Source: Euryarchaeota archaeon RBG_13_57_23 (GTDB lineage Archaea; Thermoplasmatota; Thermoplasmata; UBA10834). From it: DNA of 64,000 nt. Every line of letters starts with the position of its first letter. The first letter of the stretch is position 1. A program made the translations under genes and the position numbers. The stretch covers positions 6,731-70,730 of the forward strand of contig MGVW01000035.1 in the NCBI GenBank assembly GCA_001800675.1, in the 5' to 3' direction. Positions 10,169-61,788 of this stretch are shown piece after piece. Below the pieces are notes generated by a model. The model worked only from the letters and a program-made list of their open reading frames with translations. It searched no databases and was not told where the DNA came from.

Positions 10169-10172
10169 TGGT

Positions 10173-19065: not shown

Positions 19066-19214
19066 GTCCACACCGGTCGCGTACGGACAACCCATTCGCG
19101 CTTTCTTAATCCTTTTGGAGGGGGCGTTCGGCATTCACCGTCAGCGTGCGCTGCCAGGCATTGACATCGGCATACGGAAAAGGATATATTCGGACTCGCG
19201 ACTGGAGGAACGAT

Positions 19215-26336: not shown

Positions 26337-27296
26337 ATGATCAAAGAGAAAGTCAAAACCGGAATCCCGGGACTTGACCAGATGCTGGACGGCGGGCTAC
26401 TCCAAGGACGCACATACGTCATCTCGGGGACTTCTGGATCTGGCAAAACTACACTGGCGATGCAGTTCCTTCTCGAGGGCGCCAGGAACGGGGAGAGAGT
26501 ACTCTACATGGCAATCGACGAGCCCCCGAACGAAGTCAAGAGCAACATGAAATCGTTCGATTGGGACATCTCCAGGGTACAGGTTTTCGATGCGACGCCC
26601 GATGTAATGAGCTATGATAAGACACCTGTCAGGGATGTGTCGACTGAGCGAAAGGTCGTCTACTTCCAGAGCATCGGCGAGAACATCAGGAAGACCTCCG
26701 AGAGAAGCCCTGTCGACATGACCGTCAACACAATCCAAGAGCTCCTGAAACAGGAGATGAAGGTCGCGAGGTATACGAGAATCGCAGTGGATTCCCTCAC
26801 ATCGATGAGGTACTTCTACATCAAGACGAGCGAGGAGAACGCGACCTTGATGAGCTTCCTCCGACTGCTCTCCGACATAGGAGTGACATGCCTGGTCACT
26901 ATACAGCTTCCAGAGATATCCAAACCGGACGTTGAAGCGCACGTCGCTAGGGGAGAGATCAGACTGCACAAGTGGTTCGATGGCCGCGGGTTAATGCGCG
27001 GGGTGACCATAGAGAAGTACAGGGGTTCGGCTCACGACAATGAGTTGAGACAGCTGCGGATAGGCCCGCAGGGGATAGTCGTCAAGGCACCGTCACTTGA
27101 GAAACCTGACGGGCAGCCAGCAATCGACGCGGGGCCCGCTGTCGCCGAATCTGCAGCGCCAAGCGAACCTCCTCCGCCTCCGGACGAAGAGCTTCTCCCT
27201 GCCCCGCCAGCTCCTCCGCAACCTTCAAGTCCTCCGGATTCAGGCGGCAGTCTTCAAGAGCCGCCCAAACCTAGCGATGGGGGTGAGGGCACGTGA
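26337..27296 (+). CDS. KaiC-like/RecA-superfamily ATPase (single domain) with a Pro-rich C-terminal tail
   Basis: GIPGLDQMLDGGLLQGRTYVISGTSGSGKTTLAMQFL (Walker A), RIAVDSLTS (Walker B) and RGVTIEKYRGSAHD. The last ~68 aa are Pro/Ala/Ser/Glu-rich. Confidence 0.85.
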   Translation: MIKEKVKTGIPGLDQMLDGGLLQGRTYVISGTSGSGKTTLAMQFLLEGARNGERVLYMAIDEPPNEVKSNMKSFDWDISRVQVFDATPDVMSYDKTPVRDVSTERKVVYFQSIGENIRKTSERSPVDMTVNTIQELLKQEMKVARYTRIAVDSLTSMRYFYIKTSEENATLMSFLRLLSDIGVTCLVTIQLPEISKPDVEAHVARGEIRLHKWFDGRGLMRGVTIEKYRGSAHDNELRQLRIGPQGIVVKAPSLEKPDGQPAIDAGPAVAESAAPSEPPPPPDEELLPAPPAPPQPSSPPDSGGSLQEPPKPSDGGEGT

Positions 27297-28123
27297 GCGA
27301 CGAGCACGGGCCCAGAGTGAGCACGGGCATCCCCGGATTGGACGAAATGCTTCAGGGAGGACTGATCCGGAGCAGGCCTTACGTGGTCTCGGGGACCACG
27401 GGCAGCGGCAAGACGACGCTTGCAATCCAGTATTTGCACAATGGCGTGAAGAACGGCGAACGGTCTCTTCTGGTGGCCATCGACGAACCTCCTGCGGAGA
27501 TCAGGGAGAACATGAGGGCGCTAGGGTGGGATATCGGGAAGATCAGGATCCTAGATGCGCATCCCGCGGCGAGACAGTACAGCAAACGAGTATCGCTTGT
27601 CGAAGTAGCGGCGCAACGGAGCGTGGCCACACTCAGAGAGGCGGGCCCGAGTGAGAAGACCGACCAGCTGAAGAAAGCTGCACCCGATATCTCAATCCAG
27701 TCTCTCCAGCTGATGCTTAAGCAAGAACTTCAGGAAACCAGGTACTCCCGAGTTGTGATTGATTCTCTCACATCCTTGAAGAAGCTGTCCGAGACAATGG
27801 AGGATACCAACTCGAGCGTCATGTCCCTCCTGAGGTTCCTTTCAGAATCGAATGTAACGACCTTGATAGTCACGGATCTGCCGGATCCGACAGTGCTGGA
27901 ACCCGAGATATTCATCTGTAGAGGCGAGATCAGGCTTCACAAGCGCATGGTCGGCAGTAGGCTCGACAGGTGGGTCACCGTTGAGAAGTTCAGGGGCTCA
28001 TCTCACGATATCATGCCAAGGAGCATGACCATAACGGAAAAGGGCATCACGGTCGATCACAAGAAGAAGATACCGAGAGCGTCCTTGAAGGTGCTCCAGG
28101 CCTTCACGCAGTTTGCCAGGTGA
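27293..28123 (+). CDS. KaiC-like/RecA-superfamily ATPase (single domain), paralog of the preceding gene
   Basis: GIPGLDEMLQGGLIRSRPYVVSGTTGSGKTTLAIQYL, RVVIDSLTS and RWVTVEKFRGSSHD. The GTG start overlaps the upstream stop (GTGA). Confidence 0.85.
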   Translation: MSDEHGPRVSTGIPGLDEMLQGGLIRSRPYVVSGTTGSGKTTLAIQYLHNGVKNGERSLLVAIDEPPAEIRENMRALGWDIGKIRILDAHPAARQYSKRVSLVEVAAQRSVATLREAGPSEKTDQLKKAAPDISIQSLQLMLKQELQETRYSRVVIDSLTSLKKLSETMEDTNSSVMSLLRFLSESNVTTLIVTDLPDPTVLEPEIFICRGEIRLHKRMVGSRLDRWVTVEKFRGSSHDIMPRSMTITEKGITVDHKKKIPRASLKVLQAFTQFAR

Positions 28124-30580: not shown

Positions 30581-31879
30581 TTGGCATCAAAGGGACTGAC
30601 ACGGACAGGAGAAGCGTACTGCCTCTCCTGCCACCAGATGGTCGACAGGGACGCCACCAAATGCCAGGGGTGCCTGTCAGAGCTCACATCGGAGGTAAAG
30701 GCCTTCCCTTGCCCGAAATGTAAAACCGTCATAGCCCTCGGTGTATCCGAGTGTCCGACTTGCGGTCTCCGGTTCAAGGTCAAGACTATCAGACCGCGAG
30801 AAACCGCAGAGGACGATCAGTTCCTGGTCAAATTGATCGAGTGGGGAAGAGACGGGGCTGACAAGGGCACGGAGGAGACGGTCAGCCCGGCAACACCATC
30901 CTCTACTGGGACATCGCAAGCTGAGGTGCCGGTGCAGACTCCGGCGCCCAAGGCGGAGCCATCCGATATCACAAGGCTCGCGCTGCTCAAGGACAGCATC
31001 AAGGACCTCATGGCCAACCGCTCCCAGATGCTGGAACGCATGGAGAGGCGCATCGAAGAAGAGAAAGCCAGGTTGGCCAAGATCGCCGTCATGGACGAGA
31101 GCACTACTGACGCTTCACATGTCGAGGCTGAGATAGTATCACTCGCCGACGAGATGGCCGACATAACGATGCTTCAGGCCCACATGGAGGCGCTCTCAGA
31201 TGAGGTCTCTTCGCTGTTAGATTCAGTGGACATAGGCGATGAGGCGAAGCAGCGGGGCCTCGCAGCGCGCGCCCTCAAGAAGAAGCTCGAGGCCAAGGAG
31301 AAAGAGGTCGAAGAGCTCAGGTCAAAGGAAGAGCAGCTGGTCAAGCGCGAGGAGATGGTTGACCGCAAGATCCACGCCTACGCTCAGAAGAAGAAGGAGC
31401 TGGACGATCGTGAGAGCGAGCTCCAGTCCAAGCTGTCCGAGCTCGAGAACGAGAGGGCCAGACTCCAAAACCTGCACTCGGAGGCGGTCGGCGCCAGCAC
31501 CGAGGTCGAACGGGAACGGGCCAATGAGGAGTGGAAGGAGGAACAGAAAGGATTGAACCAGCGCCTCCTTGGAATGAAGGTGTCAATCACCGCGCACAGG
31601 CTTGGAAAGGACGCGGCAGAGGCGGATATGAGGAGCTTGGAGACCGACCTGGACGCAACGATCGCCAAGCTGGAGGAACAGATCGGGGCTCTGATCAGCG
31701 AGAAGGTAGACCTTCAGGCAAAGATGCAGGAAGCCACGGTCGTCGATGAGGATCTCAAGAAGCTTCTCAAGGTCCTGGACCAGATGCTTGGCCAGTTGCC
31801 CGAGGAGGCCATCGAGAAGTTCTCGAAGTCTGACGATTTCACCGTCTACGAACGCATCCTTGACAAGTTCAAAATCTGA
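30581..31879 (+). CDS. Double zinc-ribbon plus coiled-coil protein
   Basis: 432 aa with a TTG start after AAAAGGAGAG. Two identically spaced ribbons are present: C14xxC17-x10-C28xxC31 and C44xxC47-x10-C58xxC61. An acidic/Pro linker follows, then ~270 aa of heptad-like coil, then a short tail (FTVYERILDKFKI). Confidence 0.7.
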   Translation: MASKGLTRTGEAYCLSCHQMVDRDATKCQGCLSELTSEVKAFPCPKCKTVIALGVSECPTCGLRFKVKTIRPRETAEDDQFLVKLIEWGRDGADKGTEETVSPATPSSTGTSQAEVPVQTPAPKAEPSDITRLALLKDSIKDLMANRSQMLERMERRIEEEKARLAKIAVMDESTTDASHVEAEIVSLADEMADITMLQAHMEALSDEVSSLLDSVDIGDEAKQRGLAARALKKKLEAKEKEVEELRSKEEQLVKREEMVDRKIHAYAQKKKELDDRESELQSKLSELENERARLQNLHSEAVGASTEVERERANEEWKEEQKGLNQRLLGMKVSITAHRLGKDAAEADMRSLETDLDATIAKLEEQIGALISEKVDLQAKMQEATVVDEDLKKLLKVLDQMLGQLPEEAIEKFSKSDDFTVYERILDKFKI

Positions 31880-31898: not shown

Positions 31899-31908
31899 CA
31901 TATATTAC
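31899..31908 (+). promoter_or_regulatory. TATA-like box upstream of the giant coiled-coil gene
   Basis: CATATATTAC in the 93-nt gap, about 65 nt upstream of the ATG at 31973. Confidence 0.3.
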
Positions 31909-31972
31909 CAGACTAATACAATACAGAAAACCCCCCCCAAACTTCACCCTTCAGACATGGAGCCCGGCTAGC

Positions 31973-34900
31973 ATGGGTCTCAGAGACAAAGCGAGAGAGA
32001 GCGTTTCCAAGCCAGTCAGCCCTGCTGCTGGCGAGACTGAGACAGATCCACCGACCAAGCCGCCATTGCAGGCGCCCCTCGACGCGGTGCCCGCCCCACA
32101 GCCGGGAGCCCTTGAGCCTTCGGTAACGTATCTGGTCGCGGGAGAGAAGCCGGATCTCGCCTATTCGCTCTTCATGACCGCCTCCGCGCAGGGCATGCGG
32201 GGCCTAGTCGTTTCTCGGACGTACCCGAAGAACCTGCGGAAGGCACTGGACCTGCGAGACGCCCCGGTCTACTGGCTCACCAATGCGGTGAGCGACGAGG
32301 CGATCGGCCCTAAGGACTTGGAGCGGCTGTCGCTGGTAATCAAGAGATTCCTCGATGAGGGCGGCGGCCAGCTGGTTCTGATCGACTCGCTCGAGTATGT
32401 CATCACGAACAACAAGTTCGTGAGCGTGCTGCGGCTCGTGGAGACGATCAGAGACCTGATCGCGATTCATAAGGCTGTTGGCATAATTGCTCTGAAGTCG
32501 TCGACGCTTGAGGCATCAAAGCTGGCATCCATCCAGAGAGAGCTCGAGGTGTACTCCGCTGACAAGAGTGTTTCAGCTCCGTCTGTTCCACGCCCTCCTG
32601 CGGAAAGCCCTGTCATTGCCGAGCTCAAGCAGGACGAGCTTATGCTTGAGGCCGAACGGCTGGAGCAGCAAAAGAAGACGGTTGCGGCCGCAGCCGACAA
32701 GGTTGCCAAGGACGCCCAGAGGCTCTCGCTCGAAAGACAGGAGCTTGAGAAGGAGCGCGCCGAGGTAAGGAACACCTTGGTCCGGGTTCGTCAGACAAGG
32801 AAGGAACTCGAAGATTTCCGCATAAAGCTCACGAAAGAGGAGGCCGAGTTGACCTCCAGGGTCAGGAGTAAGTTGACCAAGGAGATGCAGGGACTCGACT
32901 CGAAGAAGGCCACGCTCGAGATGATGGAGAAGGAGATCGAGTCGAGGTACCAACAGCTCGACAGGATCGTGAGCCTCAAGACAGAGCAAAGGCTCTACGA
33001 GGTTCAGGGGGAGAAGAAGCGGCTCGAGGCTGAGAGACAGAAGCTGTCCGAGATGATGTCTCAGCTAGAGGCGGACCATACGAATCTCGAAGAACGCATC
33101 AACGAGATTCAGCAGAAGGAAATCACGCTTCAGAAATCGTCCGAGGAGGCAAGGGAGCGCGAGAAAAGGCTCCAGGAGAGGGAGCACGCCATCGCCTTGG
33201 ACAAGGTGGAATTCGAGAAGCTAAGGGCCGCAGTGGACACTGAGAAGCAAGAACTGGAACAACGTCGAAAGGGTCTGGAGGACGAGTTCGCCCGGGCCCA
33301 GGCGGAAGCCGCGAGGCTCAATTCCGATGTGACGCAGAGGGAGGAAGCCGTCACCAAGATCACTCGGGAGCTGGACATGCTCAAGTCCAAGCTCGTCGCA
33401 CAGGAGCAGATGTTGAGCGACCGGGACAGGTCCGTAGGAACGCGCTTGCAGGACATCGAGAAGCGTGAGAAAGCCCTGGCGACGCTCGAGACGGAGGCGA
33501 AGCAGCTCTTCGAGAAAGCAACGATGCTCGACCAAGCCGCTAGAACGAAGGAAGAGCACCTGACGAAGGACCGGGAGAATCTTCAAACGGATATCGACAA
33601 CCTTCGGACGGAGCTCAGCAAGCGTTTGTCAGATGTGCAGAAGCGCGAGGAAAAGCTGCGCGCGGATGAGGACCGTCTCTCCAAGGAATCGGACTCAAGG
33701 AACAAGGCACTCAAGGACCTCGAAGACCAGATGAAGGAACAGAGCGCGAGCATGGCGAAGCTGAGGGAGGCGCTCGATCAACGTGAGGCCGCCATGAAGC
33801 AGGCCGAGAGCGACATCGCTGCGGTCCGGAAGGAGGCTGAGGAGTTCGCCGCATCCGTGAACGACGAGCGAACGGCACTCGACAAGGAGATCCAGGCAGC
33901 GAGGCAGAAGGTCATAGAGGAGAGGAATTCCTTCGAGCAGGACAAGCTCGCATTCGAGAACGAGCGCAACGATGCCGAGCGCCAAATCTCTGAGGCGCAG
34001 AAGGAGATAGATGACAAGCTAGGGAAGGTCGAGGAAGAGCGCAAGGAGATGGATGAGAAGGTGCTCGCCATCGAGGAGATGCGCACCATCCTCAACCAAC
34101 GCGCGAACGACGTCGCCTCGTCTGAGCTGAGGATGGCGGAGGAGCGGGTCACTATCGATTCCATGAGGCGCGAGATGACCCGAAAGGCCGAGGAGATAGA
34201 GTCTCTCGAGCGGGACTTCACTTTGAAGCAACAGAACCTGCAAGGGTCCGCAGAGCTTGTCCAGAAATCCAAGGCCCAGGTTGATGAGAAGGAGCGGGTG
34301 TTGAGGGAACAGCTCCTGGTGACCGAGAACGAGCGCACGGAGCTGGAGAGCAAGCGAGCATCATTGGACACCGAAGAGGCGGAGTTCCAGAAGTCGAAGG
34401 CAGAGGTAGAGGAACTCCAGGAGCAAATCACAACTCAAAGGATCGAGCTGGAAGAATGGAATAAACAGCTCGACGAGATATCCGATTCACTCGATTCAAG
34501 AAAGAATGAGATCGCGGCCAAAGAAGCGGCCGTAAGATCAGTCGTTGACGAGAACACAAGGGCTAGGGAACAGCTCGCTGCGGAGAAGCAGAGGTTGGAG
34601 GAGGATTTCAACTCCAAGTTCTCCGAGCTGGAGCAGAGGCGTAATGCGCTGGAGGCGGAGTCTGCGTCGCTCGCGACCGTCAGGAACAAGATGACGGTTA
34701 CCGAGCAGGAGGCCGGCAAGAGGGAAGAGAAACAGGTCGCGATGCAGAATGCGCTAGCGGAGCGCGAACAGAAGATTTCGGATACGGAGACGGCTGTCCA
34801 GACTGCGAAGAAGGCCATCGCGGAACAGGCTGAAATCATACGGGCGGACCGACAATCGGCGGAACAGCAGAAGGCCGAGATGGCCAAGGGCTGGGAAACG

Positions 34901-37261
34901 CTCCAGAAAGAGCGGGACACAGTCCAACAGGAGATCGACCGGAGCTGGGAAGACCTAGAGTCTGCGAAGAAGGCCCTGGAAGACAAGGCAAAGGACCTCG
35001 AGAAAACGGAAGAGGCTTTATCCGGGAGGAACAAGGAGCTCAATGCCGGACTCGCAGACATCTCCGAGAGGGAGAAGGACGTTGCGTCACAGAATCTGAA
35101 GTTTGAGGATGTCAAGCAGCAGCTTGCGTCTAGGGATTCAGACCTCCAGAGACGCGCGATCGAGCTGGAGGCGTTCAAGAACGACTTAACGCAGAGAGAA
35201 CAGCAGTCCCTGGCCAGCATAGAGGCCGCCCAGAAAGTCCTCGACAACGAGCGCATGACGATAGCTTCTGAGAGAACCGTTGTAGGAGACGAGAAGGCGC
35301 ACCTTGAAGCGCAGGCGGCCGGCTTCGTGACGCGCGAGAAGGAGCTGGAGCAGGCAATCACGATGCTCGAGCGGAAGACCCAGGAGATAGAGGAAGCTGA
35401 CCAGGACCTCAAACGGAAGGAATCGGAGATCCTGGGACAGGCAAAGCTCCTCGGTGAGAAGGACGCCTCCATCAAGCTTCTCGATCAGAAGAACCGCCAG
35501 GAGTTGGATGCTAGGAAGGCGGAGATTGACAGCAGAGCTGCCGAGACAGATAGGCTGCAGAATGATGTCAGGCAATCGGAGACCGCTCTGCGGCAGAAGG
35601 AGGCGTCTCTCGCAGCCAAGGAGAAGGCCTTTGCGGAAGTCGAAGAGAAAACTCGTTCGGAGTTGGAGGCGGCAATCACAGACGCCGACACGATGAAATC
35701 CCAGCTTGATGGAGTTGCGGAACACCTGAGGGGTCGGGAAGTGGAGATCGCGAATACGGAGAAGGTTCTCGTTGAGCGCGAGACCACTCTATCTGAGCTG
35801 GAGACTGAGACGAGAAAGCAGCTGGATTCGCGTCTTGCGGACATCGAGTCCCGAGAGAAGAATCTTCAGAGGGTCGCCAAGGAGCAGGCGGCCAAGGCAA
35901 CGCAGATCGCGGGCATTGAGAAGGCACTCGGGGAGAGAGAGTACGCGTTGTCGGAGGTGGAGAAGGGCTCCAAGCAGGAGATACAGGCACTAACGTTAAA
36001 GCTAGACGATGAGAGAACAAGGCTGGAAGCCGCTCTAGAGGACTTGAAGGGCCAGAAGGCCGAGGTCTTGCAGAAGGAGAAGGCGTTGGCTGCCCTGCAG
36101 ACTTCCCTCGAGACGGCAGAGGCGAAGTTCAATCAGGACAGAGATGCTCGGCTGGCTGAGCTTCAGGACGTCACCACAATGCTCGAGCAGGGTCAGGCGC
36201 AGCTCGAGCGCGACAAGGCTGCACTGGATGCCGCAACCGTTTCTTTTGAGAAGGAGAAGAGCGGCATTGCGCAACAGAAGGCGACCGTGGAGCACGAGCG
36301 CGCGAATTCAGAGGAGCTGCGAGCGTCGCTAGCGAACCTGCAGCGGGAACTGGGGGAAAGGGATTCGGCCATGAAGGAGAAGGAGGCAGATGTTCACTCC
36401 AGGCTTCAGGATGCAGATACCAGACTCGCTGGAATCGCCCGCCGGGAGTCAGAGATTGCTGAGGTCCAGAGCAGGTTCGAGAGCCAGGGCATGGCACTTG
36501 CCATGAGGGAGCAGGAAGCGAACAAGGCGCTCGACGAATACAAGGACATTCTTGACGAGATCGCTAAGCAGAAGGACGGGTTGGACGCGCGCGAAGTCGA
36601 GATCAAGACGAGGACCAACAAACTGGAGGAGAGCGCGATCGAGGTCGAGCTGCTTCACGAGGACATTGAGAAAGAGCGGCAATTGCTTGCGCAGAAAGAT
36701 GCTGGGCTGGAACAGCTTCGAGCGGAGCTTGAGAAGTGGCGTGTAGACCTGATGGAGAAGCGGGCTCAGCTGGAGGAAGACAGCAAGAAGCGGATATCTG
36801 AGATCGTCCGCGAGGCGGCCTCGAAGAAGGAGACGGCGACTTCTGCGACCCAAGAGCAGCTCTCGAGGAGAGAGATAGAGCTCAGATCGCGCGAGGAGAG
36901 GCTTCGGGCAAGGGAGATGGATCTGGAGACCAGTGAGCGGACCGTGGCAGTCGAATTCGAGAAGCTTGAGCGTGAGCGTGCCGAGGTCAAGGACCTCTGG
37001 GACAAAGTAGAGGCTTCTAAGAAGGGAATGACCATCGTGCTCGATGAGAGATCGATCAAGGTGCTCGAGGACAGGAAGACAGAGCTGGATAGCGCCTACC
37101 TGAAGCTCTCCGACAGGGAGGAAAACCTGCGCAAGGATGAGCAGCGGCTCGAAGACGAGCGCCTGAGATTGGATGCAATCAGAGAGGAGCTGGAAGACCT
37201 AGCTAGGGTCCTCAGGCCGAAGGAAGATGAAATCAAGAAGTCGGACGGCTCAGCTGCCTGA
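31973..37261 (+). CDS. Giant (1,762 aa) protein: Pro-rich leader, DUF835-like P-loop-less KaiC/RecA-like head, very long coiled coil
   Basis: A single uninterrupted ORF whose shadow ORFs on other frames are Ser/Arg-rich junk. The head is aa ~50-195. The remainder is E/K/R/L/A/Q-rich heptad-like sequence. Confidence 0.85.
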   Translation: MGLRDKARESVSKPVSPAAGETETDPPTKPPLQAPLDAVPAPQPGALEPSVTYLVAGEKPDLAYSLFMTASAQGMRGLVVSRTYPKNLRKALDLRDAPVYWLTNAVSDEAIGPKDLERLSLVIKRFLDEGGGQLVLIDSLEYVITNNKFVSVLRLVETIRDLIAIHKAVGIIALKSSTLEASKLASIQRELEVYSADKSVSAPSVPRPPAESPVIAELKQDELMLEAERLEQQKKTVAAAADKVAKDAQRLSLERQELEKERAEVRNTLVRVRQTRKELEDFRIKLTKEEAELTSRVRSKLTKEMQGLDSKKATLEMMEKEIESRYQQLDRIVSLKTEQRLYEVQGEKKRLEAERQKLSEMMSQLEADHTNLEERINEIQQKEITLQKSSEEAREREKRLQEREHAIALDKVEFEKLRAAVDTEKQELEQRRKGLEDEFARAQAEAARLNSDVTQREEAVTKITRELDMLKSKLVAQEQMLSDRDRSVGTRLQDIEKREKALATLETEAKQLFEKATMLDQAARTKEEHLTKDRENLQTDIDNLRTELSKRLSDVQKREEKLRADEDRLSKESDSRNKALKDLEDQMKEQSASMAKLREALDQREAAMKQAESDIAAVRKEAEEFAASVNDERTALDKEIQAARQKVIEERNSFEQDKLAFENERNDAERQISEAQKEIDDKLGKVEEERKEMDEKVLAIEEMRTILNQRANDVASSELRMAEERVTIDSMRREMTRKAEEIESLERDFTLKQQNLQGSAELVQKSKAQVDEKERVLREQLLVTENERTELESKRASLDTEEAEFQKSKAEVEELQEQITTQRIELEEWNKQLDEISDSLDSRKNEIAAKEAAVRSVVDENTRAREQLAAEKQRLEEDFNSKFSELEQRRNALEAESASLATVRNKMTVTEQEAGKREEKQVAMQNALAEREQKISDTETAVQTAKKAIAEQAEIIRADRQSAEQQKAEMAKGWETLQKERDTVQQEIDRSWEDLESAKKALEDKAKDLEKTEEALSGRNKELNAGLADISEREKDVASQNLKFEDVKQQLASRDSDLQRRAIELEAFKNDLTQREQQSLASIEAAQKVLDNERMTIASERTVVGDEKAHLEAQAAGFVTREKELEQAITMLERKTQEIEEADQDLKRKESEILGQAKLLGEKDASIKLLDQKNRQELDARKAEIDSRAAETDRLQNDVRQSETALRQKEASLAAKEKAFAEVEEKTRSELEAAITDADTMKSQLDGVAEHLRGREVEIANTEKVLVERETTLSELETETRKQLDSRLADIESREKNLQRVAKEQAAKATQIAGIEKALGEREYALSEVEKGSKQEIQALTLKLDDERTRLEAALEDLKGQKAEVLQKEKALAALQTSLETAEAKFNQDRDARLAELQDVTTMLEQGQAQLERDKAALDAATVSFEKEKSGIAQQKATVEHERANSEELRASLANLQRELGERDSAMKEKEADVHSRLQDADTRLAGIARRESEIAEVQSRFESQGMALAMREQEANKALDEYKDILDEIAKQKDGLDAREVEIKTRTNKLEESAIEVELLHEDIEKERQLLAQKDAGLEQLRAELEKWRVDLMEKRAQLEEDSKKRISEIVREAASKKETATSATQEQLSRREIELRSREERLRAREMDLETSERTVAVEFEKLERERAEVKDLWDKVEASKKGMTIVLDERSIKVLEDRKTELDSAYLKLSDREENLRKDEQRLEDERLRLDAIREELEDLARVLRPKEDEIKKSDGSAA
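32120..32557 (+). other. DUF835-like module (degenerate KaiC/RecA-like fold lacking Walker A) of the giant protein
   Basis: VTYLVAGEKPDLAYSLFMTASAQGMRGLVVSRTYP...GGGQLVLIDSLEYVITNNKFVSVLRLVETIRDL. It aligns block-for-block with the KaiC-like ATPases at 26337 and 27293, but GEKPD replaces GTSGSGKT. Confidence 0.6.
32615..37225 (+). other. About 1,530-residue coiled-coil tract with no Pro or Cys
   Basis: By eye there is no Pro or Cys between aa ~215 and ~1748. The tract has recurrent motifs such as RLQDIEKREKAL, RLSDVQKREEKL, RLADIESREKNL and GLADISEREKDV. Confidence 0.7.
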
Positions 37262-37285
37262 ATGGGCCAAGGCCGTCACCCGTTA

Positions 37286-38485
37286 TCAGAAAACGTTGAT
37301 TTTTCCGCTCACGATCTGCTCAGTAAGATCGGTTATGTTGGCCAGCTTCTCGTCGAAGATGGCGGTGATTTCCTTCTCGTACTTCTTCTGATTGACATTC
37401 GAAGCGTAGATGACCTTAGCGCTGGCAGCCTGAGGCATATCGATGGGATGTCCGATCTGGGAGAGAATCCGCGTGTGCACCTCTACAACGTCTCCACGCC
37501 CAGCCTTCACTATAGCGTCGGCCACCTGGATTGCCAGTATGTTGTAGAGCTTCCCGACATGCGTCACGGGGTTTTTCCCTGCTGAGGCTTCCATGCTCAT
37601 GGGCCTCATCGGAGTAATGAGCCCGTTTGCCCTGTTCCCTCGGCCGACAGACCCGTCGTCCCCGTTCTCCATGCTCAGACCCGATACCGTGAGGTAGTAG
37701 ATCCCCTTCCTGTAGTCGTCCGCAGTGTTCACGTAGACCTTGACTTTCCTCTTGGTGAACTTCTGCGCAAAGTCCTCTATCTTCTCGGTGGCCTGTTCGA
37801 TCGTGCTCTTGTAGTGGCTAGCATCAGGTACGTGGCAATCCACAAGCGCCACCGCGACAGTCAGGTCAATCTCGTCGCCCATGCGGCAGGCCATCACTTT
37901 GACGTCCTCTCCAAGTTCTGGTAGCGTCTTGCAGAGCTTGCCGTTGATGTACTTCTCGGTCTCGAGCGTTATCGTCTCGGTCTCACTCAGCGGGGCGAAA
38001 CCGACTCCGAATGAAGTGTCGTTCGCCAACAGTTTCTTCGTCTCATAGAGCCCCCTGAGGTCGACGCTGCCCTGGCCGATCTTGCAGTCGAGTGTGACAT
38101 CCCAGTCCACGTTGAGGTTCCGGCAGTTATTCTCGAGATAATCGCTCGCCGCCTTGATCGCGCAGGTTCTGTACGGAAGCCTTTCTCCGTTGACCTCGGT
38201 TACTGCTCGACCTACGAGGAGTATGTAGATTGGTTCAAGGATCGAGCCTCCCCCGAACTTCGGTGCGGACTGGCCGCCCACCACCTCGACTTCGTCCGTG
38301 TTATGGTGAAGAATCCGATTGTAGCGTTTCTTGTACATCCCGCACAGCGCCCGAGAAACGCTCTCAGCTAGTCCGTCCGCGATGCTATCCGGATGGCCGA
38401 TACCCTTTCTCTCGACGAATTCAACGTTCTGCTCTTCGATTGGAATCTGCGTGAGTTTCTCGACGAATATCTTTCTCTTAGTCAT
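37286..38485 (-). CDS. mat: S-adenosylmethionine synthetase, archaeal type
   Basis: [14 protein letters not shown] at about 400 aa. The internal ATG ([11 protein letters not shown]) is preferred over 38512. Confidence 0.9.
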
Positions 38486-38578
38486 TGGCTCATCCCATAA
38501 GAATTGGGGCAAAGAAAGAATATCCGCACTTAACCTTTTCGGACCTTAAACAGTCCTGTCATCAGAGTGGCCAGACTG

Positions 38579-40164: not shown

Positions 40165-41331
40165 ATGAAGAAAGTAGCAATCGTCGGAGCAGGGCAGAGC
40201 AGATACGGAGACTTCCCCGACAAGGGCATCAAAGAATTGTTCTTCGAAGCGTACAAGGACATGAAAGCTAGCGTCGACAAGGGGCTGGACCCCAAGGCCA
40301 TCGAGTCCGCCTACATAGGCAACCTGGGCTCGGGCGGCTTCCAGCTAGGCAACATGTCCGCCCTTGTGACGGAGTACTGCGGGCTCACTCACATCAACAC
40401 CATGAGGATTGAGAATGCATGCGCTTCCGGAGGCTACGCCCTGGTAGCTGCCGTCATGGACGTGATGTCTGGGACCCACAAGGCCGTGCTCGCAGGCGGC
40501 GTCGAGAAGATGACCGATGTTTCTGGTGTCAAGCAGAAGTACTGGCTCGGAGTCTCCGGAGATACCGAGTACGAGAGGCTCGCAGGGACGACCTTCTCCG
40601 GCCTTTACGCACTGATCGCGCAGAGGCACATGCACGATTTCGGCACGAAGAGAGAACATCTCTCAATGGTGGCCGTCAAGAACCACAAGAACGGCGCGCA
40701 GAACCCCAAGGCCCAGTTCCAAAGGGAGATCACCCTCGAACAGGCCATCAAGGGACCGATTGTGGCGAGCCCTCTGAACCTGTTCGATTGCTGCTCGACC
40801 ACAGACGGGGCGTCCGCGGTGCTCGTCTGTGACGCGGAGATCGCAAAGCAGTACACGGACACACCAGTCTACGTCGCGGGGTTCGGAACCGCTAGCGACT
40901 TCTTGGCAATCCACGACCGCCCGGACACGACGACCCTCGAAGGAACGAGGAGAGCGGGCGAGATGGCCTACAAGATGTCCGGGCTGACTCCTAAGGACAT
41001 ACAACTGGCCGAAGTCCACGACTGCTTCACGATCGCGGAGCTACTTGCGTACGAAGACCTGGGATTCTGCGAGAAGGGTAAGGCAGGTCCGTTCATCGAG
41101 CAGGGCCATACGCAGATCGGAGGGGACAAGCCGGTCAACGCCAGCGGAGGTCTGAAGTCCAAGGGCCACCCGATCGGGTCCACAGGCACGGGCATGGCGT
41201 ACGAGATGTTCAACCAGCTCAGAGGGAGCGTCCAGAAGCCAACCAGACAGATCAAGGGCGCGGAGATCGGGCTGATTCACAATGTTGGTGGGTCGGGCGG
41301 GACCGTCGCGGTCACCATTATGAGGAGGTAA
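40165..41331 (+). CDS. Acetyl-CoA C-acetyltransferase (archaeal thiolase)
   Basis: 388 aa with IENACASGGYAL (nucleophile Cys), EVHDCFTIAE and NASGGL. Confidence 0.9.
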   Translation: MKKVAIVGAGQSRYGDFPDKGIKELFFEAYKDMKASVDKGLDPKAIESAYIGNLGSGGFQLGNMSALVTEYCGLTHINTMRIENACASGGYALVAAVMDVMSGTHKAVLAGGVEKMTDVSGVKQKYWLGVSGDTEYERLAGTTFSGLYALIAQRHMHDFGTKREHLSMVAVKNHKNGAQNPKAQFQREITLEQAIKGPIVASPLNLFDCCSTTDGASAVLVCDAEIAKQYTDTPVYVAGFGTASDFLAIHDRPDTTTLEGTRRAGEMAYKMSGLTPKDIQLAEVHDCFTIAELLAYEDLGFCEKGKAGPFIEQGHTQIGGDKPVNASGGLKSKGHPIGSTGTGMAYEMFNQLRGSVQKPTRQIKGAEIGLIHNVGGSGGTVAVTIMRR

Positions 41332-42353
41332 TGGCAATGGCAATCGGTATCTCTGGATATAGCGCGTACATACCAAGGCTGAGGATCAAGAAGGAAGATT
41401 ATGCGAAGGCCTGGGGGTCGTTCTCGGCGGCGGGCGTGGCGGAGAAATCCGTCATGGGCTTCGATGAGGATGTACTGACCGCAGCTGCCAAGGTGTCCAA
41501 GAGGGCGTTGGAATCCGTGCCGATGGCTCCCGACAAGGTGACCAGGTTCGCATTTGCGTCGACGTCTCCACCATACTTCGAGAAGCTGCTCTCGGGGACT
41601 GTGCTTTACTCCGTGGGAATGCCGAATTCAGCCTTTTCGAGTGACCACACGACCTCGACCCGCGCGGGCACCGAGGCAATGATCGCGGGGTTTGAGCACA
41701 TCTCGGCCAACCAGACAGGAATGGCTGTCGTAGTGGCTGCGGATGCACCCAGCGCGAGCATGTGGGATTCCGTGGAGCACGCGCTTGGGGCTGGAGCAGC
41801 GGCATTCGTCTTGTCCGCAGATAATCTCGTCGCGGAACTCGAAGGACATGCCTCATACGCGAGCGAGTACTTCGGGGAGCGTTTCAGGCCGAGGGGAAAT
41901 CCCTACCTACACGACCTGAATGTGAAGAAGTATGCCGAGGGTTCACTCATAACGAATACCACGCGTGCGGCCAACGCGCTTCTTAAGAGCCTGAACAGGA
42001 AGCCGGAGGAGTACCAGCACGTCGTAATCCAACAGCCGGACGCGAGGGTCCCAACGACTGTCGCATCGAGGTTGGGTTTCACGGACGCACAGCTCGCATC
42101 ATCTCTTGTGTCCAAGTCGTTGGGAGACCTTGGGGCGGCGTCGGTCCCCGTGGCGCTTGCGGCAGCTCTGGATGTGGCGAAGGTGGGAGACCAGATAATG
42201 GTCATTTCCTACGGATCAGGGGCAGGTAGCGACGCGTTGAGCTTCAAGGTCGTCAGCGACCGAAAGGCTCCTGTCAAGGTCCAGGCGGAGATGGACCGCA
42301 AGGAGTACATTGACTATGTCAAGTACCTCAAGATCAAAGGAGCCATTGTGTGA
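41331..42353 (+). CDS. HMG-CoA synthase (archaeal type)
   Basis: 340 aa with N-terminus IGISGYSAYIPRLRIKKEDYA. It overlaps the thiolase stop by 1 nt (TAATG). Confidence 0.85.
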   Translation: MAMAIGISGYSAYIPRLRIKKEDYAKAWGSFSAAGVAEKSVMGFDEDVLTAAAKVSKRALESVPMAPDKVTRFAFASTSPPYFEKLLSGTVLYSVGMPNSAFSSDHTTSTRAGTEAMIAGFEHISANQTGMAVVVAADAPSASMWDSVEHALGAGAAAFVLSADNLVAELEGHASYASEYFGERFRPRGNPYLHDLNVKKYAEGSLITNTTRAANALLKSLNRKPEEYQHVVIQQPDARVPTTVASRLGFTDAQLASSLVSKSLGDLGAASVPVALAAALDVAKVGDQIMVISYGSGAGSDALSFKVVSDRKAPVKVQAEMDRKEYIDYVKYLKIKGAIV

Positions 42354-57493: not shown

Positions 57494-57528
57494 CTCGCCA
57501 TCAATATGGCCTGTGCGAAGGATTGGTC

Positions 57529-60500
57529 ATGCGCCAAGTAGACGAGAATTACTCCCCCGTCCAGTTGGAAAAAGACGTAAGGGCGCAGTGGGACAAGGCC
57601 CGCACTTATGAGAAGGTCAAGAAGGCCCTCGAGTCGGGTAAGACATACTACTTCGTCGACGGCCCCCCCTACACCACGGGCTCGATCCATGTGGGCACTG
57701 CTTGGAACAAGATCCTGAAAGACACGATGGTGAGGTACAGGCGCATGCAGGGCCTCCAGGTGAGGGACCAACCCGGGTTCGACATGCACGGGCTCCCCAT
57801 CGAGGTCCGGGTCGAGCAATCCATGGGCATCAAGAGCAAGAAGGAGATCGAAGCCCAGGGGATCGACAAATTCATCAGCACCTGCAGAGACTATGCGATA
57901 CGCTTCAAAGCCAAGATGACCGAGGAATTCAAGATGCTCGGGGTCTGGCTCGACTGGGACAAGCCCTATCTAACTGTAGATCCCAACTATATCGCCTCGG
58001 TCTGGTGGACTCTCAAGCAGGCCTACGACAAGCAGCTTCTGACGATGGATTTCAGGGTTCTACCCTGGTGTCCTCGATGTGAAACCGCCCTTGCGGAAGC
58101 GGAGATCGAGTACTGGGACGAGACTGACCCGTCCATCTACGTCAAGTTCCCCGTTGAGGGGGAAGTCAACACATACTTGCTGGTCTGGACGACCACACCT
58201 TGGACCATCCCTGGAAACCTCGCGGCTGCCGTTCACCCTGAATTCATGTATGCGTTCGTTCGCGTGAAGCGTGGCATGCTGGAGGAGACTCTCATCGTCC
58301 TCGAAGAGAAGCTGGAGGAGCTCAAGAAGATTGCGGGGATCGAGGAGATGACGGTCCTCGACCGGACCAAGGGCTCCGAGTTGGTCGGGGTCGTGTACAA
58401 GCATCCACTAACGGACCTGGTGCCGTATCAGAGTCAGGTCAAGGGGGATGCGGCCCACGCTGTCCTCTCATCCGAGACGGTAACGAACGAGAGCACGGGC
58501 ATCGTTCACATCGCCCCGGGTCACGGTCCTGAGGACTTCGAGCTGGGCAAGGAGTACGGCCTGGAACCGTTCTCCCCCGTGGACGAGACCGGCTCCTACA
58601 CCGAGGACGCGGGGAAGCACTACGCCGGCAAGAACGTCCGAGAGGCCAACTCCATGGTCATAAGCGACCTCGTCGAACGGGGCGCGATGTTCCATCAGGC
58701 CAACATCACTCACAGATACGGTCACTGCTGGAGATGTCATCAGCCAATCATCTACCGCATCACCGACCAGTGGTTTCTCAAGGTCAGCGAGATCAAGGAG
58801 CAGCTCAACGCAGCCAACGCCCAGGTCAAATGGTACCCCGAATGGGCAGGAGCCAGCAGAGAGCGCGATTGGATCGCGAACGCGAGGGACTGGTGTATCA
58901 GCAGGCAGAGGTACTGGGGCACCCCTCTTCCGATATGGAACTGCGAGTGCGGCAATTTCAGGCTCGTATCTTCTCTAGAAGAGCTCAAGACCGCCAAGGG
59001 ATACGTCGAGGGCATGGACTTGCACAGGCCCTGGATCGACAAGCTGTCTTTCACTTGCGAGAAGTGCGGCAAGACAATGACCAGAGTGCCCGACGTGCTC
59101 GATGTCTGGTTCGATGCGGGCGTGTGTTCATGGGCCTCACTAGGCTACCCCGCGAGCAAGGAGGAGTTCCAGAAGTGGTGGCCCTGCCAGTGGATCACGG
59201 AGGCCCACGATCAGACGCGAGGATGGTTCTACTCGCAGCTCGTGACCGGTGTCGTTGCCTTTGGCAGGTCTCCGTACGACTCCGTGCTCATGCACGGTTG
59301 GGCGCTAACGCCACAGGGGACGCCCATGTCCAAGAGCGAGGGCACGGCCATCGATCCGATTCACATAGTGAACACCCTTGGCGCGGATTCGCTTAGACTA
59401 TACCTTCTGAAATCGAACGCGCCATGGGAGGATGTCCCGTTCCAGCCAGAAGGCGTGAAGGCTGCGAACCGGACATTGAACATCCTGTGGAACGTCTACA
59501 AGTTCGCAACGCTATACATGTCAATAGACAAGTTCGACCCCGCAACAGTTCACCTCGAGCACATCGCGGAATCTCTGAGGCCAGAGGACAGATGGATGCT
59601 CTCGAGGACCGAGACCCTGAAGAAGGAGGTCTCGGAGGCCATCGAGTCTTACGAGCTGCACAGGGCTGCAAGGGCAATCGAAGTCTTCGTCAACGAGGAC
59701 CTCTCCCGATGGTATGTGAAGCTCGTAAGGGACCGGCTGTGGAAAGAGGGCGATGATCGCGATAAGACTGCCGCGTTCAAGGTCCTCCACGAGGCACTGA
59801 GCACTGCAGTAGCCGTTATGGCGCCTATGACGCCGCATATCACCGAGGCAATGCACGCTAACCTCAACGGGAAGCCGGAGAGCGTGCACATGCTCTCCTG
59901 GCCAGGCTTCGACCCGAGATGGATAGACACGAAGTTGGAGGAGGGCATGCTCATGGTGCGTGAGATCTCCGAGCTCATCGCGCGTATCAGGCAGGACTCC
60001 AACATCAACCTCAGGTGGCCCCTGAAGCGCATAGTCATAAAAGCGCAGACGCAGGAGGTTGCCGACTCGATCACGGTTCTCAAGGATGCGCTCCTGTCGC
60101 AGAACAACATTAAGGAACTGCACATCGTGCCCATGGGCGAGGAATGGGACGAGATGATACTCGGCGTCGTCCCCAACCCGAACGCAATTGGCAAGGTCTA
60201 CAGGCAGTGGTCGAGCAAGATAGCGGTCATGCTCAAGAACCGGCCCGCAAGGACCATCAAGGCTGGTATAGACAAGGGCGAGTACTCGTTGGGCATCGAA
60301 GGTCAATTGGTCAAGATACTTCCGAACATGGTTTCGTTCACATCGACGGTGCCCCCGGAGGTCATGGGGGCGCAGTTCGCCAAGGGAGAGGTCTACATAG
60401 ACCTCGAGCAGACCCCCGCCTTGGAAGCCGAAGGGTTCTCGAGGGAGATGATCAGGCGCATACAGCAGATGAGAAAGGATATGAAGCTCAACGTCGAGGA

Positions 60501-61788
60501 ATTCGTCAAGGTTGATATCCAGTGCTCAAAGCGCGTGGAAGGATTCCTCGAGACATGGAAGGACAAGGTGGCGCGCGAAACCCGGGCGCGGGCCTTCGAA
60601 GTGGTTGACTCCGTCAAAGGAGACTACATCGTCGAATGGAATGTCGACACCGAAGCCCTTGTCATCGGAGTCAGCTCGATGAAGGTGAAGCAGAACATCG
60701 ATATGCTGGCCGGCATACAGGGAATGACTCCAGAAAAGGCGCTCAGGATAGTCGAAGCCGGGTTCTCAACGTCCGCGCTGATCAAGAGTGCAAGTGCCGA
60801 GGACCTCTCACTGGTCGACGGGATCTCCAAGCTCGACGCCAAGAGGATTCATGACCACTTCCACCAGGGGGAGGAAGCTCCTCCAGCGGCACCAGCTCCT
60901 GGTCCGGCACCGCCCGCCCAGCCAGTTCCACAGCCGGAGGCCCCACGGGCGCCAGCGCCTGTGCAGGCACCACCACCTGCTCCGGAGTCTGTTGTCCAGG
61001 CGCCTGCTCCGGCTCAAGTGCCAGCTCCAGAGCCGCCACCGGTTCAGCAGGCCCCAGCGCCTGCACCTGTCCCCGCACCGCCACAAGAACCGTTCATCGA
61101 AACCCTGCGCAGGGTCGAGGGGATAACGCCAGAGGCCGCAAACGCGGTCTATGACGCAGGATACACCACTTCCCAATCGTTGAAGAACGCTACCGTCCCG
61201 GACCTCGTGAAGGTGAAGGGCGTCTCCGACAGGGCTGCCACACTGCTGATCGAGCACTTCATGAGCGAGCCCGCGGTCGCAGCGGGCAGGCCGGTCAAGG
61301 CGGAGATAAGATCCGCCCCGCAGGTCCAGGAACTGGAGAAATCGTTCTCCTACCTGGTAGAAGAGGACAAGCCTGAGACATCTTACCAGCTCTTCATGAA
61401 TTCTCTGAAGAAAGGGATGAGGGGCTACTGCGTAACTAGGAACTACCCCGCGAAGATACGGACGAAATTCGACCTGGGGGAAACGCCAGTGGTCTGGCTC
61501 TCGAATGTCGGTCGCGAGAACACCATCAGGCCCAAGGATCTCGAGAAGCTGAGTCTCTCGCTGGAGCAGTTCCTGTCGCAGCCGGGTGGAGGAGTCGTGC
61601 TCCTCGACGGACTGGAGTACCTTATCACCAACAACAACTTCATCACGGTCTTGAGGCTCATACAGTCACTTCGGGACCAGGTCGCCATAAATCAATCCAT
61701 CCTCCTGATGGCGGTGAACAGGTCCACGCTCGAGAGCCACCAGCTGAATTTGCTGGAGCGCGAAGTGGATTATACGATCACCGGATAA
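57529..61788 (+). CDS. ileS: Isoleucyl-tRNA synthetase with a 364-aa non-canonical C-terminal extension
   Basis: The class I core carries PPYTTGSIHVGTAWNK (HIGH-type) and GTPMSKSEG (KMSKS), plus the CP1 editing domain and Zn-cluster Cys pairs. The core ends near aa ~1056, but the ORF continues to 1,419 aa. Confidence 0.9.
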   Translation: MRQVDENYSPVQLEKDVRAQWDKARTYEKVKKALESGKTYYFVDGPPYTTGSIHVGTAWNKILKDTMVRYRRMQGLQVRDQPGFDMHGLPIEVRVEQSMGIKSKKEIEAQGIDKFISTCRDYAIRFKAKMTEEFKMLGVWLDWDKPYLTVDPNYIASVWWTLKQAYDKQLLTMDFRVLPWCPRCETALAEAEIEYWDETDPSIYVKFPVEGEVNTYLLVWTTTPWTIPGNLAAAVHPEFMYAFVRVKRGMLEETLIVLEEKLEELKKIAGIEEMTVLDRTKGSELVGVVYKHPLTDLVPYQSQVKGDAAHAVLSSETVTNESTGIVHIAPGHGPEDFELGKEYGLEPFSPVDETGSYTEDAGKHYAGKNVREANSMVISDLVERGAMFHQANITHRYGHCWRCHQPIIYRITDQWFLKVSEIKEQLNAANAQVKWYPEWAGASRERDWIANARDWCISRQRYWGTPLPIWNCECGNFRLVSSLEELKTAKGYVEGMDLHRPWIDKLSFTCEKCGKTMTRVPDVLDVWFDAGVCSWASLGYPASKEEFQKWWPCQWITEAHDQTRGWFYSQLVTGVVAFGRSPYDSVLMHGWALTPQGTPMSKSEGTAIDPIHIVNTLGADSLRLYLLKSNAPWEDVPFQPEGVKAANRTLNILWNVYKFATLYMSIDKFDPATVHLEHIAESLRPEDRWMLSRTETLKKEVSEAIESYELHRAARAIEVFVNEDLSRWYVKLVRDRLWKEGDDRDKTAAFKVLHEALSTAVAVMAPMTPHITEAMHANLNGKPESVHMLSWPGFDPRWIDTKLEEGMLMVREISELIARIRQDSNINLRWPLKRIVIKAQTQEVADSITVLKDALLSQNNIKELHIVPMGEEWDEMILGVVPNPNAIGKVYRQWSSKIAVMLKNRPARTIKAGIDKGEYSLGIEGQLVKILPNMVSFTSTVPPEVMGAQFAKGEVYIDLEQTPALEAEGFSREMIRRIQQMRKDMKLNVEEFVKVDIQCSKRVEGFLETWKDKVARETRARAFEVVDSVKGDYIVEWNVDTEALVIGVSSMKVKQNIDMLAGIQGMTPEKALRIVEAGFSTSALIKSASAEDLSLVDGISKLDAKRIHDHFHQGEEAPPAAPAPGPAPPAQPVPQPEAPRAPAPVQAPPPAPESVVQAPAPAQVPAPEPPPVQQAPAPAPVPAPPQEPFIETLRRVEGITPEAANAVYDAGYTTSQSLKNATVPDLVKVKGVSDRAATLLIEHFMSEPAVAAGRPVKAEIRSAPQVQELEKSFSYLVEEDKPETSYQLFMNSLKKGMRGYCVTRNYPAKIRTKFDLGETPVVWLSNVGRENTIRPKDLEKLSLSLEQFLSQPGGGVVLLDGLEYLITNNNFITVLRLIQSLRDQVAINQSILLMAVNRSTLESHQLNLLEREVDYTITG
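60694..61785 (+). other. IleRS C-terminal extension: HhH pair, Pro-rich linker, HhH pair, DUF835-like module
   Basis: HhH-1 at 60703-60861, linker at 60865-61092, HhH-2 at 61093-61260, DUF835-like module at 61342-61785 (SYLVEEDKPETSYQLFMNSLKKGMRGYCVTRNYP...GGGVVLLDGLEYLITNNNFITVLRLIQSLRD). Confidence 0.7.
60865..61092 (+). repeat. Low-complexity Ala/Pro/Gln/Val-rich coding tract (76 aa linker)
   Basis: QGEEAPPAAPAPGPAPPAQPVPQPEAPRAPAPVQAPPPAPESVVQAPAPAQVPAPEPPPVQQAPAPAPVPAPPQEP. It is an imperfect GCN/CCN-rich DNA repeat and is in frame. Confidence 0.8.

Follow-up and report, generated by a model that had tools for sequence, protein, structure and literature searches.

A giant Thermoplasmata protein with a DUF835 head, predicted to be a pseudo-ATPase, on a length-constrained coiled-coil rod

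The giant gene and the parts of its product

In this study we have analysed a giant gene in a stretch of 64,000 nucleotides, here called the window, from the metagenome-assembled genome (MAG) Euryarchaeota archaeon RBG_13_57_23 (contig MGVW01000035.1, positions 6,731 to 70,730 of the forward strand). Zinke et al. assign this MAG to the GTDB order UBA10834, which is related to Methanomassiliicoccales but is not methanogenic (bioRxiv 10.1101/2020.03.09.984617). The gene lies at 31973..37261 on the plus strand, as do all of its parts given below, begins with ATG and encodes a protein of 1,762 amino acids (aa), in which a DUF835 domain, modelled as a KaiC/RecA fold without a P-loop, is followed by a very long heptad coiled coil. 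The product is rich in Glu (16%), Ala (11.5%), Leu (10.8%), Lys (9%) and Arg (8.9%) and contains no Cys at all. Pro residues occur only at aa 14-49 (11 of the 49 leader residues), 60, 85, 98, 113, 203-213 and 1749, so that the tract of aa 214-1748 is free of Pro. The original prediction for this locus, made from the sequence alone, had described a 5.3-kb open reading frame (ORF) with a Pro-rich leader at aa 1-49 and a tract lacking Pro and Cys, and both descriptions hold. Motif scans over the full length of the protein detected neither a Walker A motif (G....GK[ST]) nor CxxC, and Kyte-Doolittle analysis revealed no transmembrane segment, the maximum 19-residue mean being 1.27 in the head and 0.23 in the rod. 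Pfam gave no significant match beyond DUF835, with no sensor or receiver domain and no ABC-type ATPase half-head at either terminus. Pfam and the orthologue alignment likewise gave no globular C-terminal domain, and there is no conserved globular insert near the midpoint of the rod, where conservation is 0.4. These scans agree with the earlier claims that Walker A, a CxxC hook, a transmembrane segment, an SMC hinge and a C-terminal globular domain are all missing. An exact look-up found no identical full-length protein on record.

The leader (aa 1-49; 31973..32119) begins with the nonapeptide MGLRDKARE (aa 1-9), which occurs once in the window and is present as MGLRD[KR]A[RK]E at the N-terminus of all 34 orthologues. 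The rest of the leader is Pro-rich and predicted to be disordered (AlphaFold2 predicted local distance difference test, pLDDT, < 50). It varies in sequence and in length, some orthologues having a leader ~90 aa longer and a rod of the same length. The head (aa 50-195; 32120..32557) matches Pfam DUF835 (PF05763) at aa 61-191 with an E value of 7e-28 and 97.6 bits against a gathering cutoff of 33.1, and the match spans profile positions 6-136 of 136, as the original prediction had expected of an hmmscan search. An AlphaFold2 model of aa 1-300, built on an alignment of 17 homologous fragments, has a mean pLDDT of 76 and a core of 84-92. Strands at aa 51-56, 77-81, 99-101, 134-137, 169-174 and 192-194 alternate with helices, which bears out the alpha/beta module proposed earlier for aa ~50-195. 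When this model was compared with the PDB by Foldseek, the top matches were FlaH/ArlH (4yds, E 2e-5), PH0284 (2dr3), KaiC (7dy1), RecA (4psa) and DnaB, all at probability 1.00 and the first four with E values of 2e-5 to 5e-4 and a target-normalised TM of ~0.5. FlaH/ArlH, PH0284 and KaiC share with the head the RecA/KaiC fold and a Walker-B-like hhhhDS strand, but identity is 11-18% and the head has no Walker A. Its loop after strand 1 reads AGEKPD in place of GxxxxGK[ST], whereas the Walker-B-like strand LVLIDS (aa 134-139; family form hhhD[SG]LEY) is retained. The model thus presents the head as a KaiC/RecA-fold domain without a P-loop and a predicted pseudo-ATPase, in line with the degenerate ATPase head suggested before. 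To judge from its sequence, the loss of Walker A makes ATP binding and autophosphorylation unlikely.

The head has a column conservation of 0.87 and a ratio of nonsynonymous to synonymous substitution rates (dN/dS) of 0.03 (aa 50-200, against the closest orthologue described below). DUF835 has been listed as 'iKaiC', meaning inactivated KaiC-like, among the output domains of archaeal response regulators (PMC5847659), and in the literature that we searched by name and by accession PF05763 we found no further paper on it. A PDB sequence search with the head returned a single match, to a designed repeat protein, which we reject as a spurious local match. Word-indexed searches with the head reached no distant DUF835 relatives, only truncated fragments. 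The name 'FtsZ-interacting ZipA' given by JGI to one head fragment is without domain support, DUF835 being the only Pfam family recorded there.

A Pro/Ser-rich neck (aa 196-214; 32558..32614) with Pro at 203, 206, 208, 209 and 213 and a pLDDT of 46-60 joins the head to the main heptad rod (aa 215-1613; 32615..36811), which has ~1,400 aa and would measure ~208 nm if continuous. After this low-confidence neck, AlphaFold2 builds one continuous helix over aa 213-299 (pLDDT 92-96). The hydrophobic spectrum of aa 215-1748 is dominated by a single resolution-limited peak (period 3.521, power 12.3), compared with a maximum power of 1.85 in 100 shuffles, and shows harmonics at 7.0 and 2.33; 140-aa windows along aa 351-1610 each peak at 3.50-3.55. 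By contrast, the power at 51/14 is 0.22 and that at 11/3 is 0.03. In the Viterbi register assignment, 53-66% of heptad a/d positions are hydrophobic against 5-12% of the other five. The assignment used a fixed scoring matrix, a heptad model trained by expectation-maximisation having been discarded with its a/d labels mixed. It contains 11-17 register discontinuities, nearly all of +1 (skip) or +4 (stutter) and evenly spread, and these shifts account for a period of 3.52 instead of 3.50. The rod is therefore a genuine, canonical left-handed heptad coiled coil, and the heptad-like character originally noted is borne out.

The same tract had been called unbroken, which it is not. Besides the register shifts, there is a hinge at aa 1614-1628 (36812..36856), S/T/A-rich in this protein and carrying Pro in most orthologues. 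A register break was assigned at aa 1628, coinciding with the S/T/A-rich stretch, while 34 of the 41 rod prolines found in orthologues map to aa 1616-1625 and small insertions and deletions (indels) occur at the same place. The stretch of aa ~1614-1628 is thus a conserved non-helical hinge, followed by a conserved distal coil of ~120 aa (aa 1629-1748; 36857..37216) that is invariant in length and has no Pfam match. A short charged tail (aa 1749-1762 and the stop codon; 37217..37261) ends the protein. Recurring blocks had also been reported in the rod. Four RLxD[IV]xxRExxL blocks are indeed present at aa 491, 551, 1026 and 1287, against 0.01 expected from register-preserving shuffles for a pattern that was defined after the blocks had been seen, but they are not conserved past the closest orthologue. 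No long internal protein repeats were detected in the rod, the best off-diagonal score being 43.5 bits against a maximum of 43.1 in register-preserving shuffles, and nothing significant emerged from a search of the gene for DNA repeats or tandem repeats. The lack of DNA repeats leads us to reject both repeat-driven misassembly and recent internal duplication. Neither did charge in the rod show any periodicity above shuffles, at 28, 28/3 or any other period.

Conservation and length constraint in the family

A pattern scan over one genome per GTDB species identified 35 loci, of which 34 are in Thermoplasmata/Thermoplasmatota MAGs. Twenty-five of these carry complete orthologues of 1,602-1,762 aa in independent assemblies, including the closed chromosomes CP070736.1, CP070732.1 and OY970070.1. 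The survey of related genomes suggested by the original prediction thus supplies assembly-level evidence on its concern over frameshifts or chimeric assembly. The other 9 loci were left out as incomplete, since most run off a contig end, one has a sequence gap and one has a stop at 192 aa. The closest orthologue, in RBG_19FT_COMBO_56_21 (L003), also has 1,762 aa and is 82.6% identical with zero indels. Against it, dN/dS is 0.106 over the whole protein and 0.068, 0.16 and 0.085 in the rod at aa 215-940, 941-1480 and 1481-1748, respectively. The ORF is a genuine and strongly constrained gene found in Thermoplasmata MAGs. The view that it might be an assembly artefact or a non-coding low-complexity ORF, to which the many 'partial' database homologues and one scaffold with an N-gap inside the gene could lend colour, is effectively refuted by the 25 full-length orthologues in independent assemblies, closed chromosomes included, by the equal length of the closest one without indels, by a dN/dS of 0.11 and by the absence of DNA repeats.

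The database records of this family deserve a comment of their own. Nearly all homologues of the giant protein on record are truncated 'partial' DUF835 fragments of 100-480 aa (proteins P0001-P0026), and short-read MAG assemblies usually end or have N-gaps inside the gene (L001 at 10001-10833; L002 at 8129-8480), though it is free of DNA repeats. Because assemblies break inside the gene, the true size of the family (~1,600-1,760 aa) is hidden in protein databases.

Column conservation, computed over the window protein and its 25 full-length orthologues, is unevenly distributed and peaks at the head, at aa 241-360 and at aa 1520-1748. The near-invariant proximal coil (aa 241-360; 32693..33052) reaches 0.73-0.80, and even its surface positions b, c and f have 0.63-0.74 compared with ~0.5 further along the rod. 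From its sequence, this segment probably serves for interaction or belongs to the head assembly. Values are 0.56-0.73 over aa 1520-1748 and 0.67-0.73 in the distal coil (aa 1629-1748), with 0.79-0.82 at its a/d positions. Between these peaks lies a spacer region (aa 940-1480; 34790..36412) that is variable in both sequence and length, with a conservation of 0.2-0.45 (0.2-0.36 at aa 1040-1440).

Length variation follows the same division. Orthologue indels of more than 2 aa fall nearly all within aa ~940-1480 and nearly all comprise 7n or 7n+4 residues, and aa 215-940 are without indels in 24 of the 25 orthologues. Despite 25-50% identity, orthologue rods measure 1,429 +/- 53 aa (range 1,387-1,549), which corresponds to 206-230 nm at 0.1485 nm per residue, and this length is independent of that of the leader. 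The period of the rod is 3.51-3.525 in every orthologue, even in one at 25% identity (L033). The indel lengths and this shared period both speak for a coiled coil. The indels of aa 940-1480 also bear on how two chains may pair, because they have no compensating indels in aa ~480-1020, the segment that would be the partner in an antiparallel or folded-back arrangement. Such one-sided, uncompensated indels disfavour full-length antiparallel or SMC-like fold-back pairing, and this pattern in the sequences indirectly favours parallel, in-register pairing of the chains.

Neighbouring genes and DUF835 relatives

The gene that directly precedes the giant gene (30581..31879, +, the same strand) encodes a Zn-ribbon/helical protein, a candidate partner. 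Pfam places a DZR domain at aa 14-62 of this protein. In an alignment of 45 homologues, 8 Cys are invariant, and the double Zn-ribbon is joined by a DDQFLxKLIEWG helix, a linker predicted to be disordered, a helical region of ~300 aa and, at the C-terminus, a further conserved motif. The original prediction had proposed that the conservation of this gene be surveyed, and in 33 of 34 loci it proved to be the direct upstream neighbour of the giant gene. Foldseek gave no match below E = 0.1 for an AlphaFold2 model of the Zn-ribbon protein (pLDDT 73), and BLASTP detected no specific similarity to the giant protein (best E 0.053). The names 'SbcCD ATPase subunit' and 'chromosome segregation ATPase' given by JGI are labels of homologues of this Zn-ribbon protein, in which we found no ATPase domain. 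In the public record, the protein (P0178, 413 aa) is given a start 19 codons into the TTG-initiated ORF, which would cost the double zinc ribbon its first CxxC. Since orthologues of 417-445 aa conserve the N-terminus ASKG.TR.GEAYC..C, it is probably the longer form that is real.

The Zn-ribbon gene and the giant gene are separated by 93 nt, in which we noted a TATA-like CATATATTA at 31899-31907, a C8 run at 31931-31938 and a GGAG at 31959-31962 (+), 11 nt upstream of the ATG. With these as candidate promoter and ribosome-binding signals, the giant gene may have its own promoter. A 107-aa ORF at 37262-37585 (+) begins right after the giant gene stop, antisense to the 3' end of the S-adenosylmethionine (SAM) synthetase gene (37286-38512, -). 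We considered it as a partner gene and rejected it as a shadow of the latter. Its conservation in other loci is only apparent, because the SAM synthetase gene lies opposite.

Some 4 kb upstream of the giant gene, two tandem genes for single-domain KaiC-like ATPases (26337-27296 and 27293-28123, both +) overlap by 4 nt. They match Pfam KaiC PF06745 with E values of 6e-44 and 4e-48, and their Walker A motifs, GTSGSGKT and GTTGSGKT, are intact. Their synteny is conserved, and from this context the pair are candidate docking partners of the head. In almost every locus the upstream order is KaiC-like, KaiC-like, AAT-family acyltransferase, AsnC regulator, nitroreductase, Zn-ribbon and giant gene, followed downstream by SAM synthetase (-), a lysine-aminomutase-like radical SAM gene (-), thiolase and 3-hydroxy-3-methylglutaryl-CoA (HMG-CoA) synthase. 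Among the other products encoded in the window are an MttB-family (trimethylamine methyltransferase-like) protein and HMG-CoA reductase, thiolase and HMG-CoA synthase of the mevalonate pathway (7774-9240, -; 17785-19134, -; 40165-42353, +). The ORF at 13846-15396 (-), of 516 aa, matches no Pfam family at E <= 1e-5.

A second DUF835 domain is encoded in the same window. An isoleucyl-tRNA synthetase (IleRS) of 1,421 aa (57523..61788, +; Pfam domains) carries two helix-hairpin-helix (HhH) motifs as well as a linker rich in Pro and Ala, and its C-terminal DUF835 has 47% identity (E 9e-53) with the head of the giant protein. This sequence match identifies it as a paralogue of the head. In a full profile search that returned 2,718 DUF835 proteins, with architectures taken from the 150 best representatives, the closest non-orthologous relatives are of the same kind: 22 of 34 long representatives combine IleRS, HhH (often Zn-ribbons) and DUF835. 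The IleRS-DUF835 fusions of Thermoplasmatota reach 2,329 aa and are annotated in their source as plain 'isoleucine--tRNA ligase'. CxxC..CxxC motifs are fused to DUF835 in ~37 of 141 relatives. Only two other proteins among these 150 best of 2,718 have an N-terminal DUF835 with a long helical tail, P0138 (1,378 aa) and P0153 (1,329 aa), which one source labels as Thermoplasmata archaeon. Their DUF835 is followed by about ten helical repeats of ~95 aa, a transmembrane helix and an extracellular domain. As a second such family they imply that DUF835 heads on long helical stalks arose more than once, although a tail of ~95-aa repeats with a membrane anchor differs from the heptad coil of the giant protein.

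Proposed function and comparison with known proteins

We propose that the giant protein serves as a tether or scaffold of parallel chains and constrained length, with the pseudo-ATPase head as its docking site, and we give this reading a probability of roughly 45%. The chains would run in the same direction and in register, most likely two of them to a rod of ~190-230 nm, and selection would act on the length of that rod. In the cytoplasm the rod itself would be a passive spacer, tether or scaffold and not a motor or ATPase. At one end, the head and proximal coil would dock onto proteins of the RecA/KaiC fold, either the IleRS-DUF835 fusion or the two KaiC-like ATPases, and at the other end the hinge and distal coil would engage another partner, for which the upstream Zn-ribbon/helical protein is the best candidate. 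Spacer or ruler behaviour is suggested by rod lengths that stay so close to 1,429 aa at 25-50% identity, whatever the length of the leader. Two binding ends are suggested by the conservation peaks at the head, at aa 241-360, where surface positions are conserved too, and at aa 1520-1748. The choice of partners draws on the place of the Zn-ribbon gene beside the giant gene, on the Zn-ribbon motifs fused to DUF835 in ~37 of 141 relatives and on the paralogous DUF835 of IleRS, and the earlier description of DUF835 as an inactivated KaiC-like domain (PMC5847659) is in keeping with the proposal. In its most specific form the proposal describes a ~0.2-µm tether or ruler whose head co-assembles with IleRS-DUF835 and/or KaiC-like rings and whose hinged distal foot binds the Zn-ribbon partner. 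All these details together are improbable.

Several of our results weigh against the proposal. The e/g ionic pairs counted for parallel, in-register chains number 29 attractive versus 37 repulsive (z = -0.5), the best antiparallel centre reaches z = 1.9 out of 53 tested, and staggered arrangements are also without significant signal. Since these pairs favour no arrangement, the orientation of the chains is indicated by the indel asymmetry alone. Adjacency is a weak sign of a functional link here because housekeeping genes at the locus are equally syntenic, so the neighbouring KaiC-like genes carry little weight and the Zn-ribbon gene a reduced one. The coiled coil was called from periodicity and register analysis and not by a benchmarked predictor. 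Finally, conserved rod ends would suit head-to-tail assembly of a filament equally well.

This last point leads to a less probable alternative, namely that the protein is a self-assembling cytoskeletal filament resembling crescentin, FilP, Scy or HMW2, in which dimers join end to end via the rod ends and the DUF835 head regulates or anchors the polymer. Intermediate filaments overlap head to tail through their rod ends, and in the giant protein, dominated as it is by a ~1,500-aa rod, the two rod ends are the most conserved rod segments. However, the absence of any charge period above shuffles leaves no sign of staggered lateral packing, and a period of 3.52 differs from the 3.64 of Scy and FilP with their 51-residue repeat. 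A paracrystalline lattice would not easily accommodate a region whose length varies by up to ~160 aa, and known intermediate-filament-like proteins do not carry a globular pseudo-ATPase head held on a long leash.

An unlikely alternative is that the protein organises nucleic acids or chromosomes, as a functional counterpart of SMC, Rad50 or MukB that lacks ATPase activity. The head would then be a DNA- or RNA-binding module, perhaps aided by the Zn-ribbon protein, and the coil would span the distance between remote sites. Such a role would fit the RecA/DnaB-like fold of the head, the neighbouring gene with two Zn-ribbons, and the closest DUF835 paralogues, which stand beside HhH motifs and Zn-ribbons on a tRNA synthetase. 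The giant protein, however, has no ABC-ATPase head, SMC-type hinge or zinc hook and not a single Cys, its one-sided indels oppose the antiparallel fold-back typical of SMC-like arms, and its rod is net acidic, with 371 D+E against 288 K+R. The 'chromosome segregation ATPase' names belong to homologues of the Zn-ribbon protein and not to the giant protein. Searches of Pfam and NCBIfam revealed no end-to-end match to SMC or Rad50, an identity that would have spoken against the original prediction. What they did reveal are coil-arm positions far under the cutoffs, such as SMC at 77.5 bits (cutoff 567) and ASRP at 73 (cutoff 300), with HmpF and Rad50 in addition, and the SMC, Rad50 and ASRP matches as a whole range over 18-77 bits against cutoffs of 300-729. 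A reading as a defence system was likewise rejected, PADLOC having given weak JetC and LmuB matches in the coil region only.

It is still less probable that the protein is an output or adaptor of an archaeal KaiC network, whose head would enter or cap KaiC-like hexamers while the rod serves a secondary purpose such as oligomerisation or localisation. The description of DUF835 as a response-regulator output domain and inactivated KaiC (PMC5847659), the pair of intact KaiC-like ATPases encoded 4 kb upstream with their synteny conserved, and the existence of a KaiC homologue with a coiled-coil extension (KaiC-RS, PDB 8fwi/8dba) all point in this direction. Nevertheless, a length-conserved rod of ~1,400 aa under purifying selection far exceeds what an oligomerisation handle needs, and Pfam finds neither a sensor nor a receiver domain in the protein.

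If the tether or ruler reading is true, part of the translation or signalling machinery would be physically positioned in the cell. Whichever role applies, a selected coil of ~1,400-1,550 aa with a pseudo-ATPase head represents a new candidate for an archaeal spacer, tether or cytoskeletal element, in a lineage without cultured members. DUF835, the 'inactivated KaiC', gains a testable role as a docking module, with a paralogue on IleRS and Zn-ribbon fusions among its relatives. To our knowledge, no coiled coil reported so far from archaea would be as long as a continuous rod of ~0.2 µm.

Both the DUF835 domain and the principle of the coiled coil are known, whereas their combination is undescribed in the literature we searched, where we found no characterised protein with a DUF835 head on a giant coil; the original prediction had likewise known of none. 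Within the DUF835 family, the head shares the motifs TYLV, [ST]R..P, WL[ST]N, P.DLE.L, hhhD[SG]LEY and ITNN, and the family has lost the P-loop too. Described members, however, are proteins of 250-300 aa, C-terminal domains of membrane sensors or outputs of response regulators with REC/PAS domains. The C-terminal coiled-coil extension of KaiC-RS has ~50 residues, and the coil of the giant protein is ~30 times longer. The order of parts is the same in the two, since KaiC-RS (PDB 8fwi/8dba) also has a KaiC domain and then a coiled-coil helix.

Among rod proteins, those of the SMC, Rad50, MukB and ASRP type resemble the giant protein in their very long heptad coils, as is reflected in the sub-threshold coil-arm matches. 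Unlike them, it lacks ABC half-heads, an SMC-type hinge and a CxxC hook, and its indels oppose an antiparallel intramolecular coil; its coil per chain is about four times as long as one SMC arm. Long coiled-coil proteins are rare in prokaryotes, and SMC, Rad50 and MukB are the longest known (PMC1322226). Scy, FilP, crescentin and HMW2 of Mycoplasma pneumoniae are a further point of comparison, with the giant protein, as rod-dominated prokaryotic giants of > 1,300 aa that do not hydrolyse nucleotides, which for the giant protein is a prediction. They share no homology with the giant protein, which has heptads (3.52) in place of a 51-residue (3.64) repeat, no charge periodicity and a globular pseudo-ATPase head. 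The eukaryotic golgins, EEA1 and p115/Uso1 are unrelated in sequence, and no membranes or Rab-like partners are known for the giant protein. By functional analogy, however, they may come close to it, with a ~200-nm rod, conserved partner-binding ends and a divergent but length-constrained middle, and if it does act as a tether or ruler, the giant protein would be a prokaryotic counterpart of these long coiled-coil tethers.

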